Origin: a virus
Virus record (IMG/VR): IMGVR_UViG_3300020039_000013
DNA: 52,347 nucleotides
Strand: one strand, 5' to 3'
Part shown: one piece after another, positions 2,722-10,828 of the stretch
Position numbering within the stretch: position 1 is the stretch's first letter
Layout: every line of letters begins with the position of its first letter
Program-made: the position numbers and the translations under genes
Notes under the pieces: model-generated
What the model was told of the DNA's origin: nothing
Database searches by the model: none
What the model saw: the letters and a program-made list of their open reading frames with translations, nothing else

Positions 2722-3552
2722 ATGAAAGGCTATAAAGTTTTCAACCCGGATTTTACTTGCAGAGGATTCCAGTATGAGGTAGGAAAGACCTACAAGCACA
2801 ACGGGCCTCTTTCTATCTGCCACAGTGGATTCCACTTCTGCCGCAAGGTCGCCGATTGCTTCGGTTACTACGCCTTTGACCCCCGCAACAAAGTGGCAGA
2901 AATCGAGGCAACCGGACTTGTGGAGAGCAAGGAGGATAAGAGCGTCACAGATGAGATCACCATCGTCCGGGAAATCTCCTGGGAGGAAATGCTGACCCTC
3001 GCCAATACCGGAACCGCCTGCACTGGCCTTAATAACACCGGGGACATGAACACCGGGAACTGGAACACCGGGAACTGGAACACCGGGGACTGGAACACCG
3101 GGGACATGAACACCGGGAACAGGAACACCGGGAACAGGAACACCGGGGACATGAACACCGGGAACAGGAACACCGGGAACTGGAACACCGGGGACTGGAA
3201 CACCGGCAACTGGAACACCGGCTTTTTCTCCACCATTACTCCCACGGTTACGCTTTTTGAAAAGCCCACCGACATGACAGCTGCCGAGGTCTGCGAGATT
3301 CTCGGTATCCGAATTCTCAACTGGAATTATGAAAATAATTGGTGGATTTTCAGCCGGAGCATGACAGAGGAAGAAAAATCCGCGCACCCGGAGCACGAGA
3401 CCACGGGAGGCTATTCGAAATCCATTCCATTCAAAGATGCCTGTAAGCTGATGTGGGATAACCTTACCGATAACGAAAAGGCAGCGGTCAAGGCCATCCC
3501 AAACTTTGATGCGGATATCTTCTGCAAAATCACCGGGATCAAGGTGGAATAA
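2722..3552 (+). CDS. Pentapeptide-repeat protein. Its conserved N-terminal domain is paralogous to the one in 51762..52347 (DUF7666-like, provisional).
   Basis: AAGGAG RBS lies before ATG 2722. N-domain: MKGYKVFNPDFTCRGFQYEVGKTYK...CHSGFHFC. It is followed by 13 NTG(D/N)(W/M/R) pentapeptides. Confidence 0.8.
   Translation: MKGYKVFNPDFTCRGFQYEVGKTYKHNGPLSICHSGFHFCRKVADCFGYYAFDPRNKVAEIEATGLVESKEDKSVTDEITIVREISWEEMLTLANTGTACTGLNNTGDMNTGNWNTGNWNTGDWNTGDMNTGNRNTGNRNTGDMNTGNRNTGNWNTGDWNTGNWNTGFFSTITPTVTLFEKPTDMTAAEVCEILGIRILNWNYENNWWIFSRSMTEEEKSAHPEHETTGGYSKSIPFKDACKLMWDNLTDNEKAAVKAIPNFDADIFCKITGIKVE
3034..3213 (+). repeat. 15-nt tandem repeat, 12 near-identical units encoding NTG[DN][WMR], with degenerate units on both flanks (3004-3228)
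   Basis: aacaccggg(g/a)ac(atg/tgg/agg) is repeated in phase with the CDS. Confidence 0.95.
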
Positions 3553-6883: not shown

Positions 6884-7279
6884 ATGGAACTTAAACCTTG
6901 CCCGTTCTGCGGGAACGAAGTCCATCTTAAAGCGATGCCGTTATGGAGACCGGGAGGCCACGGCTATTATGGATGTTATGAGTACATAATCCGATGCGAT
7001 AACATCGAGTGCGGATGCCGTCTCGCCAACCTTGGAAAGAACAACACGATATATTCCACCACGGAAGAAGCGGAGAGAAACGCCGCCGAAGCATGGAACA
7101 GGAGGGCTGGTGACGCTCAGCCCGTCCGGCATGGGCGGTGGGAAGCATCGTACATGGACGATGCTCTTGTGTGTTCCGAGTGTGTTAACTACTGGATTTA
7201 CAAAGGTTACCAATACGATTATCACCACTGCCCCAACTGCGGCGCAAAGATGGATGGAGGGGCAAACCCTGATTGTTGA
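6884..7279 (+). CDS. Lar-family restriction-alleviation-like protein with an extra C-terminal zinc ribbon
   Basis: MELKPCPFCGNEVHL...TEEAERNAAEAWNRRA matches the Lar family signature. C-terminal CSEC...CPNCG. Confidence 0.65.
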   Translation: MELKPCPFCGNEVHLKAMPLWRPGGHGYYGCYEYIIRCDNIECGCRLANLGKNNTIYSTTEEAERNAAEAWNRRAGDAQPVRHGRWEASYMDDALVCSECVNYWIYKGYQYDYHHCPNCGAKMDGGANPDC

Positions 7280-7838
7280 CTATGCCGAACAGATAAAGCA
7301 GTCCGTCACCATGCCGGAAGTAGCGGCGATGTACGGTCTGACCGTCAACCGTTCGCACAAGGCGATCTGTCCATTCCATGAAGATAAAAAGCCGTCCATG
7401 CACGTATACCCCGGTCGGAGAGGTTACTTCTGCTATGTCTGCGGCAAAGGCGGGGATGTAATCACATTTACAGAGCGTCTGTTCGGTCTGACATTTCAGG
7501 ATGCCATGAAAAAACTGAATGGGGACTTCCGGCTTGGACTTCCCATCGGCGCGGAACTGGACGAGGACGCACGGAAAGAAGCTGCCCGGATTGCCTACCA
7601 ACGGCGCAAAGAACAAGAACGCAAGAAGAAACGCCACGAAGCGCTTTTGACGGCCTATCACAGCGCACTTGATGAGTGGATAAGGTTGGATAGCGTGATC
7701 CGTGAAGAAGCCCCGGAAACGCCTTTTGACGGCTTTACAGAGGCATACGCGGACGCGGTGAAACACATAGACTTTGCCGGGTACAAGTTGGACGCGGCGG
7801 AGAGGGAGTTATACGAATTTGAGAAAGGTATTGCATGA
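7254..7838 (+). CDS. CHC2 (primase-type) zinc-finger protein
   Basis: AICPFHEDKKPSMHVYPGRRGYFCYVCGKGGDVITF is a CHC2 zinc finger. The start is chosen at in-frame ATG 7254, which is uncertain. Confidence 0.7.
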   Translation: MEGQTLIVDYAEQIKQSVTMPEVAAMYGLTVNRSHKAICPFHEDKKPSMHVYPGRRGYFCYVCGKGGDVITFTERLFGLTFQDAMKKLNGDFRLGLPIGAELDEDARKEAARIAYQRRKEQERKKKRHEALLTAYHSALDEWIRLDSVIREEAPETPFDGFTEAYADAVKHIDFAGYKLDAAERELYEFEKGIA

Positions 7839-10040
7839 AACATTACGGCGATATAACAAAACTGTCCGGCTATGATCTGCCCGTAGTGGATGTAATAACA
7901 GGCGGTTCGCCCTGTCAGGACTTGTCCGTGGCGGGGAAACGCGCTGGAATGGCAGGAGAGCGAAGCGGACTGTTCATGGAGCAGATACGCATTGTGAAGG
8001 AGATGAGGGAACGTGATAGAGCAAGTGGACGGACAGGTAGGTTTGTTCGACCTCGATACATGGTCTGGGAAAACGTACCCGGAGCATTCAGCTGTAACGG
8101 AGGCAAAGACTTTCAAGCCGTCCTTGAAGAAATCGTCAAAATCGCAGAACCGGAATGCCCCGATTTGTCTGATGCTGTCCAGGGGGGGGGGTGGACAAAA
8201 TCGGGATGTTTGTACTCCGACGTGGGGACATGGAGCATTGCTTGGCGAGTACACGACGCGCAGTTTTGGGGAGTCCCCCAGCGAAGAAAACGTATCGCGC
8301 TTGTCGCAGATTTTGGAGGACTGTCCGCTCCCGAAATACTCTTTGAGCGCAAAGGCTTGTCAGGGGATTTTGAACCGAGCAGAACGGCGGGGGAAGGAAC
8401 TGCCCCCGGAGCTGAAAGCAGCACTGATAGCACAAGCGAACCTGTCAGAGACGGATGGGTTGAACAAGAAGGAACCTACTACGATCCCGGATTCAGAGAT
8501 GACGATACCATCTGTCTGCAAGGAAACGGAATCGACCGAGCCGACACAGCCGGATGCAACGGTCGCGGATGGCGTAGGGGGGGAGTTACACCCTTAACAC
8601 AATCGACCGACCCGCAGTCATGTCCTTCCAAGAAAGAGCCGGTAAACCAGGGGGGGGGCAAAGGAATCCTCATTCAGCATGAACACACCGGAGCCTTGTC
8701 AACAATCAATAACCAATCCGTCTTTGACGGCAGGATTTGATGGGTCAGCGGGGAGCACAGCCGGAAGCATTGGTTTTGCGGAAGAACAGGCGATAACTGC
8801 CAAATCAACCGGGGGGGTATTGCCTCATACGCCGTTGACTGTCGGAACGGAACGGAGAACGAATGTGTAAACGGGACGCTACAAGCGAAAGACCAAGGGA
8901 TCAGTTTGAATCTGAACAACGTAGTCCGGGTATCCTTGTCCTAAACGATCAGGGGGGCAGTGATGGCAGTCAGCTATGACGTGACCGGGACTCTCCGGGC
9001 AGAAATGGGCGGTCATCCTCCATTAGTGCTTGTGTATGAAAGCCACGGACAAGATGCACGGTATCGACCACTCGGCGAGACTTGCGAAACCATATCCGCA
9101 AAATATGGATTAGGGGGGTAATGTTCCCTTAGTGTTGAAATATGAAGAAACTATACAACAAAGCAAGGAATGACCAATGGGAAGAGGATACCGTGTGCAT
9201 GACAGTTATTGCCCGATACGGAACAGGGGGGCAACGTGCCGATTGTTATTGAATACTGCGTAAACGATGACCCCACTCCGAAAGTCAACGGGGGGGCGTA
9301 TGCTACACACTTTCCAGAACGGGACATATCCCCGTTGTCGTGATAGGAGAACATGACATATCAGAAAGTAACAGGGACGTTGAATCCCGGTGCGCATCCG
9401 GGCAGCTACAACGGGCAAGACGCATACAACGATATGCTGGTGATTGATGAAGTACAAAATGATTTCTTGCATAGGGGGGGGTGAAACCTCGCAGACGTTA
9501 GATGCAAGCTATTTTAAAGGTCCAGGAGCAAGAAACGGAAAGGAACGTGAGGTTTTGGCTGTGGAGCCAACATACATGAGTGACCGCAAAGGACACAATG
9601 GCATTTCCGAAAATGGTACGGCGACAACGCTGACAGCACAGGAAAAGGAACGACCGATCATAGGAACAAGTATCGTTCGGCGGCTAACGCCGGATGAATG
9701 TGCTTCCCTCCAAGGTTTCCCGCGTGATTGGTGCAATATCGGGGACTGGACAGACACCAAGGGAAAGAAACACAAGGACGCTGACAGTCCGAAGTATAAA
9801 GCCTACGGCAACAGCATTGCGGTTGGATATGCAAACGGACGAAGCGGTTTCTGGTGCTGGATGGCACGACGGATTTGTGCTCAATATGAACGGCAAATCA
9901 CAATCGGGAGCCTGTTTGATGGAATCGGAGGTTTCCCGCTGGCCTTTGAATCCTGCGGTGCAAAAGCTGTCTGGGCGTCGGAGATTGAAGAATTTCCCAT
10001 AGCTGTAACAAAATACCATTTCCCGGAGGTGGAAATTTGA
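7835..10040 (+). pseudogene. DNA (cytosine-5) methyltransferase with permuted motif order (IV, VI, VIII, TRD modules, IX, X, then I, II) and multiple frame breaks
   Basis: PCQ 7910-7918, ENV 8069-8077, QRRKR 8279-8293 (frame 2). TRD-type peptide modules lie in changing frames over 8500-9480. RRLTPDECASLQGFP starts at 9678, GNSIAV 9807-9824, LFDGIGG 9912-9932. Stop at 10040. Confidence 0.7.
8013..8597 (+). CDS. Out-of-frame ORF embedded in the MTase gene; its product resembles a family seen in Firmicutes ICEs/prophages (...SRLSQILE...YSLSAKACQGILNRAERRGKELP...)
   Basis: 194-codon ORF in frame 0, fully inside the frame-2 MTase ORF 7835..8740. Family recognition is from memory only. Confidence 0.4.
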   Translation: MIEQVDGQVGLFDLDTWSGKTYPEHSAVTEAKTFKPSLKKSSKSQNRNAPICLMLSRGGGGQNRDVCTPTWGHGALLGEYTTRSFGESPSEENVSRLSQILEDCPLPKYSLSAKACQGILNRAERRGKELPPELKAALIAQANLSETDGLNKKEPTTIPDSEMTIPSVCKETESTEPTQPDATVADGVGGELHP

Positions 10041-10828
10041 CCGAAAAAGAATACCGCGCACACCCCGCCATAAGCCGGTCAGAGCTATGGCACATGAACG
10101 AAAGCCCGGAAAAGTTCAAATACTACCGGGAGAACCCGCCAGAGCCTACACCGGCTCTACTGTTCGGGCAGGTGGTGCACAAGCTAATGCTCCAGCCGGA
10201 AACATTCGATGATGACTTTGCCGTGGCCCCGGATGTTGACCGTCGCACGAAGGACGGCAGGGAAGCGTACAACGCCTTTCTGATGGCCTCTGATGGCAAA
10301 GGTATAGTTACACCCGATATGTACGAAACGGCGCAGAGCATGGCACAGAGAGCCTTGCAGGAGCCATTCGTAGCGAAGTTGCTGAACGGACAGAAAGAAG
10401 TGCCGTTTTTCTGGACGGACGAAGATACCGGGATTGATTGCAAGTGCCGCCTTGACTGTCTAAACGAGATAGGGGAAAACCTTATCATCGTGGACTACAA
10501 GAGCTGCACAGACGCAAGCAATGACGGATTCATGCGGGACGCTATCAAGTACGGGTATCATTTCCAGTCTGCTATGTACTCCGAGGGCGTACAGCGAAAC
10601 ACGGGACGCAAGCCGCTTTTCGTGTTCATAGCCCAGGAGAAAACCGAGCCTTACAGCATCAACATCTTTCAGGCAGATGAAGCGTTTGTACAGTACGGAC
10701 GGGACATTATGCGGGAATACCTTGGAATCTACAAATACTGCACGGAAACCGGGGACTTTTACGGATTTTTAGGGAAGTCCGGCATAATTAACACGCTATC
10801 GCTCCCGGCTTGGGCGGCGAAGGAATAG
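10037..10828 (+). CDS. RecE-like PD-(D/E)XK exonuclease (DUF3799/exonuclease VIII C-terminal domain type)
   Basis: TTG start after GGAGGTGG. Motifs FGQVVHKLMLQPETF, KCRLDCL, IVDYKSC, YHFQSAMY, FIAQEKTEPY. Confidence 0.75.
   Translation: MTEKEYRAHPAISRSELWHMNESPEKFKYYRENPPEPTPALLFGQVVHKLMLQPETFDDDFAVAPDVDRRTKDGREAYNAFLMASDGKGIVTPDMYETAQSMAQRALQEPFVAKLLNGQKEVPFFWTDEDTGIDCKCRLDCLNEIGENLIIVDYKSCTDASNDGFMRDAIKYGYHFQSAMYSEGVQRNTGRKPLFVFIAQEKTEPYSINIFQADEAFVQYGRDIMREYLGIYKYCTETGDFYGFLGKSGIINTLSLPAWAAKE

Follow-up and report, generated by a model that had tools for sequence, protein, structure and literature searches.

Evidence for a protein-coding gene overprinted in the +1 frame of a phage C5-methyltransferase gene

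Several unusual arrangements of C5-methyltransferase (C5-MTase) genes are known. M.AquI is a split enzyme that is active as a heterodimer, M.BssHII and the plant enzyme DRM2 are circularly permuted, and the multispecific enzymes of the Bacillus phages SPR, phi3T and rho11s contain tandem target-recognition domains. In the phasevarions of Neisseria, Haemophilus and Campylobacter, MTases are switched by simple-sequence repeats. In M.EcoHK31I, as described in PMC2836561, the beta polypeptide, for which another frame of the alpha gene codes, supplies motif IX and is required for activity (Lee, Kam & Shaw, 1995, via PMC2836561). Overprinted genes are also found in small phages and viruses, such as phiX174 E within D (reviewed in PMC8227390). 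Here, we describe an open reading frame (ORF) of 194 codons that is nested, on the same strand, within a C5-MTase gene in a viral DNA of 52,347 nucleotides (IMG/VR record IMGVR_UViG_3300020039_000013; this whole stretch is referred to as the window). In bacteria and large phages, long overlapping genes on the same strand have rarely been accepted, because the evidence usually rests on one genome. The nested ORF of the window has very deep comparative support, and selection switches cleanly from one frame to the other.

The nested reading frame and the selection acting on it

The 194-codon ORF (8013..8597, frame 0) is present in the ORF list of the window exactly as reported in an initial annotation, and overlaps the 301-amino-acid ATG ORF 7835..8740 in phase +1, both being on the plus strand. 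The product of the latter ORF is a C5-MTase, as the initial annotation had proposed (PF00145, E = 4.3e-24), in which PCQ, VWENVPGAF, QRRKRIALVADFGG (including QRRKR) and ILFE are read in frame 2, and frame 0 gives the peptides WSGKT, SFGESP and SRLSQILE over precisely those bases of the MTase motifs to which they had been assigned. The nested ORF starts with GTG, with an in-frame TGA (8004-8006) just 5′ of it, and its predicted product begins with MIEQVDGQ. A Shine-Dalgarno (SD)-like AAGGAG (7997..8002, plus strand) is located 10 nucleotides 5′ of the GTG and corresponds to the Lys-Glu codons of the MTase sequence IVKEMRE.

For comparison, 80 viral loci were retrieved using MTase-frame peptides only (GL[FY]MEQI and RPR[YW]MVW), thereby avoiding selection for the nested frame, and were combined with the window and earlier loci to give 58 sequences of less than 95% nucleotide identity. 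The first ATG, GTG or TTG after the upstream stop lies within two codons on either side of position 8013 in 55 of these 58 relatives, and the start codon is ATG in 37, GTG in 19 and TTG in one; an SD-like motif is found 4–18 nucleotides upstream in 57 of them. At the level of the sequence, the overlapping gene would therefore be equipped with start signals of its own, a conserved ATG/GTG and an SD-like site.

The probability of an open frame, P(open), was defined as the share of synonymous shuffles of the MTase codons that leave the +1 frame free of stops, the codon pools being taken from the same gene. Over the equivalent of positions 8012-8440, the +1 frame is stop-free in 57 of the 58 relatives, where the shuffles predict 2.6 stops and a mean P(open) of 0.085. 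In the window itself, just 0.6% of the synonymous shuffles are open over this region (3.8 stops expected); thus, the nested ORF is more than a product of chance. The +2 frame contains 7.07 stops versus 7.11 expected, and all three antisense frames contain stops, being open in 0, 12 and 1 of the 58 loci. Upstream of the nested ORF (7835-8002), the +1 frame contains 4.09 stops and is open in none of the 58 loci. It is exactly at the start of the nested ORF that the frame becomes free of stops, and the two halves of the ORF are each depleted of them; the N-terminal part (8013..8282) is open in 57 of 58 loci, at a mean chance of 0.22 each. The initial annotation had asked whether homologous MTase genes carry stops in this frame and whether the translation has homologs other than identical loci. 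With 57 of 58 non-redundant relatives open and homologs numbering thousands of clusters, the finding survived. Two long antisense ORFs, 7658-8254 (minus strand, 198 amino acids) and 8113-8433 (minus strand, 106 amino acids), also overlap the region; these appear spurious, because the antisense frames of the relatives contain stops.

The nested ORF can be divided into three sections on the plus strand: an N-terminal part (residues 1-90, 8013..8282) that lies over MTase motif VI and the spacer between motifs VI and VIII and is predicted to be disordered; a predicted C-terminal helical domain (residues 91-144, 8283..8444; SRLSQILE..PKYSLSAKACQGILNRAERRGKELPPELKAALIAQ) that lies over motif VIII and the following linker; and a non-conserved tail (8445..8597), over which the MTase frame encodes the authentic recognition module CLQGNGIDRADTAGCNG. 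The tail differs in length and sequence between relatives, and the MTase-frame module CLQGNGIDRADTAGCNG is kept in loci L003 and L014.

Along these sections, the constraint shifts from one frame to the other. The entropy at the third position of the MTase codons is approximately 1.5 bits before the overlap, approximately 1.1 at 8015-8250, 0.7-0.9 over motif VIII and 0.37 at 8345-8404; in this last interval, the first MTase position, which is the third position of the nested codons, is the most variable (1.2-1.4 bits). By the Nei-Gojobori method, the proportion of synonymous differences (pS) in the MTase frame falls along the gene from 0.78 before the overlap to 0.57, 0.42 and 0.25. At 8345-8434, the nested frame shows a pS of 0.70 and a proportion of nonsynonymous differences (pN) of 0.225, giving a pN/pS of 0.32, versus a pN/pS of 1.44 in the MTase frame, the latter being as expected for an unconstrained overlapping frame. 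In the N-terminal part, where the MTase pS is 0.57, the nested-frame pN/pS is 0.92; upstream of the ORF, this frame has a pN/pS of 1.47. Downstream of motif VIII, the mean pairwise identity among 10 remote genes is 63% in the nested frame versus 34% in the MTase frame. The phase of the wobble position and the course of pN/pS along the gene thus indicate that constraint from the MTase prevails over motifs VI and VIII, and that from the nested gene over the linker that follows motif VIII. These sequence comparisons show purifying selection on both frames, with a balance that shifts along the overlap.

These results comprise what is looked for in an overprinted gene: an alternative frame that is open beyond chance, selection in that frame and a reduced rate of synonymous change in the host frame. 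The nested ORF is thus very likely to be a selected coding sequence. Of the three explanations offered by the initial annotation, namely genuine dual coding, a frameshift product and a database family derived from the alternative frame of MTase genes, the first is strongly supported by the frame-specific selection tests. In all probability, 8013..8597 is a genuine overprinted protein-coding gene in the +1 frame of a phage C5-MTase gene.

Several points weigh against this conclusion. The N-terminal 90 residues of the putative protein are under weak amino-acid constraint. One of the 58 loci, L009, contains a stop in the nested frame (3173-3295) despite an intact MTase of 500 amino acids; the nested ORF may therefore be dispensable in some lineages, or, alternatively, the stop is a sequence error. 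The codon pools of the shuffles are taken from the same gene, and the per-locus probabilities cannot simply be multiplied, because the loci are phylogenetically related. Neither curated families nor the PDB contain a structural or sequence relative that points to a function. Finally, searches of open-access literature found no description of the nested ORF, and an earlier one may exist beyond such text.

Distribution and annotation of the nested family

The initial annotation had assigned the nested translation to a family common in integrative conjugative elements and prophages of Firmicutes. Such a family does exist, and its range is far wider than was assumed. In a set of 5.8 billion proteins, 1765 related clusters were found at E ≤ 1e-3, mostly of 145-200 amino acids and lacking Pfam domains, and a full HMMER pass over the representative library yielded 4442 clusters at 50% identity. 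Among the best 150 representatives, the homologous region starts at residues 1-20 of the protein throughout. A second, high-GC (guanine-plus-cytosine) subfamily comprises 1264 further clusters of approximately 156 amino acids, which, if they have a name, are termed “hypothetical protein”.

A translated search of GenBank phages matched 115 records. In all eight annotated phages that were opened, the match is in the +1 frame inside the annotated coding sequence of a C5-MTase and is open over 135-194 codons: RCS47 (P1-like; dmt), Streptococcus Javan105, Vibrio 1.171.O, Mycobacterium Omega (gp127), Akkermansia Chantilly, Pseudanabaena Pan4, Burkholderia Bcep22 (gp25) and Faecalibacterium Lelie. 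The GC content of these eight ranges from 0.37 to 0.65, and P(open) is 0.0005-0.37 in the seven that were shuffled. At least 572 loci were confirmed among bacterial genomes that represent single species. In a motif test of the best 80 genome loci, the match is +1 to the frame with ENV and QxRxR in 76; two of the four exceptions are nested on inspection (L125 and L158, one being an N-terminally truncated MTase and the other a G-tract indel), and the other two lie at contig ends. Altogether, the nested ORF is in the +1 frame of an MTase in 86 of the 88 loci checked (8 phages and 80 genomes). No copy outside an MTase gene was found among these eight annotated phages and best 80 genome loci. The idea that the nested domain occurs elsewhere as an ordinary in-frame domain was considered and rejected on the same counts (8 of 8 phages and 76 of 80 genome loci, plus L125 and L158).

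The proposal that the alternative frame of MTase genes gave rise to the protein family is thus literally true, as the 86 of 88 loci and a phage protein family discussed below (phrog_16143) illustrate, yet the frame is selected rather than spurious. Judging from these sequences, the arrangement is old and widespread: it is shared by MTases with permuted and with normal motif order, spans hosts from at least six phyla and is present in dmt of P1, P7 and RCS47. The dmt genes of P1-like phages (L087, NC_042128.1, ~73573-74061; P1, AF234173; P7, NC_050152) contain an unannotated +1 ORF of 163 codons with a P(open) of 0.003; a peptide of its predicted product is, for example, ...YFLSSKACAGILR. The nested ORF is thereby placed in a classic, genetically tractable phage. 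The P1-type dmt region is present in 492 of 5426 complete Escherichia coli genomes (~9%), and the records listed annotate the MTase only; the prediction is therefore testable with one MTase-silent stop mutation. In Mycobacterium phage Omega (L090, 1062-2366), the MTase itself is split between gp127 (motifs I-VIII) and gp128 (the recognition domain and motifs IX and X), and the nested ORF of 159 codons lies inside gp127 with its start upstream of motif IV.

Gene callers have repeatedly taken the nested ORF at the expense of a continuous MTase, which is truncated as a result (L001, 5001-5456; L095, 3001-3486; L096, 3001-3474). In the deposited annotation of Thalassovita litoralis, the nested ORF is a “hypothetical protein” and the MTase is cut to its C-terminal part. 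This mode of calling is a systematic annotation error for the gene family. Pfam, NCBIfam and PADLOC gave no match for the nested ORF of the window or for seven remote ORFs, and in PHROG the window ORF itself was unmatched. A PHROG family of 139 positions labeled “DNA methyltransferase” (phrog_16143) matches relatives of the nested ORF (P0113, 3.8e-6; the phage Omega ORF, 5e-11; P0353, 2.4e-5). This label describes the host gene and not the nested frame, and seems to have been borrowed from the former; at least one phage protein family is accordingly mislabeled. Furthermore, MTase mutants designed as “catalytic-dead” or by synonymous recoding would unknowingly alter the second protein.

Permuted host gene, poly-G tracts and rival explanations

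The MTase of the window is distributed over three stretches on the plus strand. The N-terminal ORF (7835..8740, frame 2) contains a motif III-like sequence (GDITK), motifs IV (PCQ), VI (ENVPG) and VIII (QRRKR), the linker and the first target-recognition modules. An array of recognition modules in alternating frames follows (8598..9443), and the C-terminal ORF (9444..10040; frame 0, i.e., the nested frame; PF00145, E = 3.3e-14) contains the last module and motifs IX (RRLTPDECASLQGFP), X (GNSIA), I (FDGIGG) and II (ASEIEE). The main frame thus has a motif IX of its own (RRLTPxECxxLQGFP). The S-adenosylmethionine (AdoMet)-binding motifs I and II, together with IX and X, are in a separate ORF in the window, with 19 MTase-frame stops between the two parts, and a single polypeptide with all motifs exists in 30 of 53 relatives (470-711 amino acids). 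The order of motifs in the window and in the intact relatives is III-IV-VI-VIII-TRD-IX-X-I-II (TRD, target-recognition domain), not the canonical I to X; in L001 (4823..6451), the whole MTase is encoded in this permuted order in one frame of 541 amino acids. By its motif order, the window MTase is circularly permuted, with the break between motifs II and III, and the permuted ends (...VTKYHFPE and MKHYGDITK...) join seamlessly onto the sequence of normal-order enzymes, such as that of Streptococcus phage Javan105.

The surroundings of the gene are those of a phage genome. A Lar-type restriction-alleviation ORF (Lar_restr_allev, 6884..7279) lies upstream, and Lar-like ORFs are also located beside the MTase in L001, L003 and L005. 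The stop of an ORF for a CHC2 zinc finger of the primase type (7032-7838) overlaps the ATG of the MTase (ATGA, 7835-7838), and downstream, an ORF for a DUF3799/PD-(D/E)XK nuclease (10037-10828) starts 4 nucleotides before the end of the C-terminal MTase ORF.

The gene is also rich in poly-G tracts. The G10 at 8182..8191 (plus strand), which the initial annotation had pointed out, lies inside the overlap and is in frame for both ORFs (QGGGW in the MTase and RGGGGQ in the nested frame), and a G7 (8577..8583, plus strand) is located four codons before the nested stop. Further tracts occur at 8650 (G9), 8811 (G7), 8952, 9113 and 9226 (G6 each), 9290 (G7) and 9474-9481 (G8), such that nine of the 11 tracts of six or more Gs in the contig lie within 1.3 kb, between 8182 and 9481. 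Over 53 loci, the density of such tracts is 1.49 per kb in the gene versus 0.11 per kb in the flanks, a 13-fold difference; genes that are read in several frames have 5-12 tracts and intact genes 0-3. Similar clusters, of up to 12 tracts per gene, are found in L003, L006, L008, L010, L015-L017, L019, L020, L030, L032, L054 and L069.

The tracts mark the boundaries of modules, and from one tract to the next the reading frame alternates. In the window, for example, frame 1 encodes the authentic SYTLNTIDRPAV between the G7 and the G9 (8584-8650), and the backbone frame is restored after the G9. An automated test for tracts in and out of frame was non-discriminating, as long alignments cross short out-of-frame segments, and the frames around the tracts were therefore read manually. 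Judging from the sequence, one G more or fewer at 8577..8583 would place other downstream modules in frame with the nested ORF or with the MTase. Such alleles exist in relatives: the near-identical contigs L081/L085, and likewise L055/L050, differ by one G (G7/G8) at ~3608, just 3′ of the nested domain. The G7 allele encodes a full-length MTase and a nested protein of 157 amino acids, whereas the G8 allele encodes a truncated MTase and a fusion of 455-504 amino acids between the nested domain and the half containing the recognition modules and motifs IX-X-I-II. Tract-length alleles that change the frame, the mark of phase variation, are thus found in relatives. General homopolymer sequencing error received no support in a small sample (a T8 is in frame in an intact ORF, and a C8 is intergenic). 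In 14 apparently “broken” genes, the MTase N-domain shows a pN/pS of 0.19 and 0.13 and the nested C-domain of 0.24, with pS saturated, which indicates that these genes are not decaying and are not plain pseudogenes. The alternating frames may represent contingency switching of modules, slippage during expression or miscalled tract lengths.

These tracts bear on an alternative in which the nested ORF of the window is the 5′ part of a longer gene, for the nested domain, the recognition modules and motifs IX-X-I-II, that encodes the second subunit of a split MTase, or a phase variant in which slippage on poly-G attaches the nested domain, instead of the catalytic half, to the C-terminal half. In the window, the nested ORF shares its frame with the ORF for motifs IX-X-I-II, and uninterrupted fusions of 415-504 amino acids occur in six of the 58 relatives (L011, L012, L047, L050, L068 and L071) and in several redundant ones. 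Approximately one in six of the best 150 representatives exceeds 400 amino acids and begins with the nested domain, one such fusion being P0076, and the switch between the fused and unfused forms is a single G in a G7/G8 tract. That a split C5-MTase can be active as a heterodimer is reported for M.EcoHK31I in PMC2836561. However, several frame-0 stops lie between 8597 and 9444 in the window, and the fusions could be OFF variants or miscalls of tract length. Moreover, in normal-order MTases (P1-like, Vibrio, Streptococcus and Thalassovita), the nested ORF ends 3-15 codons past the conserved domain, and the MTase continues. The free-standing nested ORF is therefore the general, and probably the ancestral, state, and a subunit gene of this kind is an unlikely explanation for the window.

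The frameshift product envisaged by the initial annotation would be a hybrid of the MTase N-terminal part and the nested C-terminal part, made by a ribosomal +1 shift or by slippage on the G10. The G10 does lie inside the overlap, a G7-G8 tract is found at the same offset in ~20 of 53 relatives, and strong constraint is confined to the C-terminal third of the nested ORF. In L158 (a Fusobacterium metagenome-assembled genome, 1500-1700), an indel in the overlap G tract, the equivalent of the G10 of the window, leaves the nested N-terminal part in frame with MTase motif VIII, and the MTase N-terminal part then runs into the +2 frame. The overlap tract thus does vary, or is miscalled, in assemblies, and the indel marks the G10 as a real slippage-prone site. 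On the other hand, the nested ORF has a conserved start codon and SD site, the depletion of stops sets in precisely at this codon and extends through the entire N-terminal part, and many relatives, including those in P1-like, Vibrio and Streptococcus genomes, have no tract at the overlap site. In addition, the nested domain begins at residues 1-20 in the best 120 and the best 150 database proteins and is never preceded by MTase sequence there. A frameshift is not needed to account for these features and is very improbable as the source of the frame-0 peptide.

That the ORF and its family are spurious gene calls, a by-product of MTase motif conservation and codon bias, is hardly credible and was rejected: the N-terminal peptides do vary as synonymous Val codons predict (S/Y/F/C in WSGKT over WENV), high GC does favor open alternative frames (P(open) 0.14-0.37 in three high-GC phages) and gene callers do take the nested frame while truncating the MTase, but the best-conserved nested part sits where the MTase frame is poorly conserved (63% versus 34%), the wobble phase switches to the nested frame with a pN/pS of 0.32 versus 1.44, low-GC genes are open as well (P(open) 0.0005-0.003), and the depletion of stops is bounded by the nested start and absent from the +2 and the stop-containing antisense frames.

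Predicted product and comparison with known systems

In two AlphaFold runs, with 31 and then 134 sequences, the models of the nested product agree: residues 1-90 are of low confidence, with a predicted local distance difference test (pLDDT) score of ~50, and a helical hairpin domain is predicted thereafter, with helices at residues 91-103, 113-126 and 132-144 and a pLDDT of 92-93 over residues 111-140. The residues that vary little or not at all between phyla (L97, S98, E102, L111, A115, C116, G118, I119, L120, R122, A123, R126, G127, K128, L130, P131, L134, A137 and L138) all lie within this C-terminal domain and are all present in the window. A profile search of solved structures returned a chance hit only (E = 0.038), and Foldseek found nothing below E = 1.6 in the PDB, the model being mostly of low confidence. 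The nested domain and motif IX are alike by eye (RYxLSxKACxGIL and RxLTxRECxRLQ); this relationship was rejected, as hhalign gave it a probability of 0.1%. The median isoelectric point of the nested family is 6.0, which is uninformative with respect to DNA binding.

If the overprinted gene is expressed as proposed, ribosomes would initiate independently on the same mRNA to produce a protein of ~145 residues. Its functional core would be the C-terminal helical hairpin (LSxILE...YxLSxKACxGILxRAxxRGKxLPxxLxxAL), and the N-terminal part would be a disordered lead-in, kept open because translation starts upstream of it. The product may assist or regulate the enzyme as its partner, or may be a companion factor against restriction; a function linked to the MTase is suggested because the ORF was never found apart from the gene and adjoins a Lar-type restriction-alleviation gene. 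The more specific role of an MTase partner is a possibility that we hold with some reserve. A product that acts with the MTase, or against methylation-dependent restriction, would be a new player in the epigenetic conflict between phages and their hosts. It is also tempting to speculate that an ancient pan-phylum gene encodes an unrecognized MTase-associated factor and that, in one phage lineage, the poly-G tracts constitute a combinatorial, slippage-driven methylation switch, although this wider scheme is rather doubtful as a whole. In such a switch, the tracts would determine what the recognition/AdoMet half is joined to, the catalytic half or the factor, as well as the recognition modules that are in frame.

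The resemblance to known systems is partial in each case. As in phasevarion MTases, G tracts lie within the ORF and one-G differences between near-identical genomes change the product, a likeness of alleles rather than of switching events; unlike those systems, the genes described here contain up to 12 tracts, are carried by phages and, in one state, fuse the C-terminal half to the product of the other frame. Judged from sequence, the long variable region between motifs VIII and IX is comparable to that of the enzymes of SPR, phi3T and rho11s, being composed of modules with a T-L core (SYTLNTID, GTLRAE, GTLQAK and VCYTLS), although the modules here are separated by poly-G and lie in different frames. 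As in M.BssHII and DRM2, the order of motifs is rearranged and all of them are kept, the break being located here between motifs II and III.

The nested ORF is similar to M.EcoHK31I, according to the description in PMC2836561, in that a second chain is encoded wholly inside a C5-MTase gene, on the same strand, in the other frame and from its own start codon; the N-terminal part of M.EcoHK31I beta is described there as tolerating deletion, which we count as a further likeness. By contrast, on this comparison of descriptions, the main frame here has its own motif IX, which the M.EcoHK31I alpha chain lacks; the nested family shows no profile similarity to this motif by hhalign (probability 0.1%), and the nested ORF lies over motifs IV/VI-VIII in thousands of genes from many phyla. 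With the overprinted genes of the phiX174 type, the candidate gene shares the same-strand arrangement, a product that is predicted to be largely disordered, suppressed synonymous change in the older frame and an alternating dominance of the two frames. Unlike in those genomes, the host is a mobile gene for a cellular-type enzyme that resides in large double-stranded DNA phages, prophages and conjugative elements, which are not limited in size, and the overlap persists across phyla and through circular permutation of the host gene.

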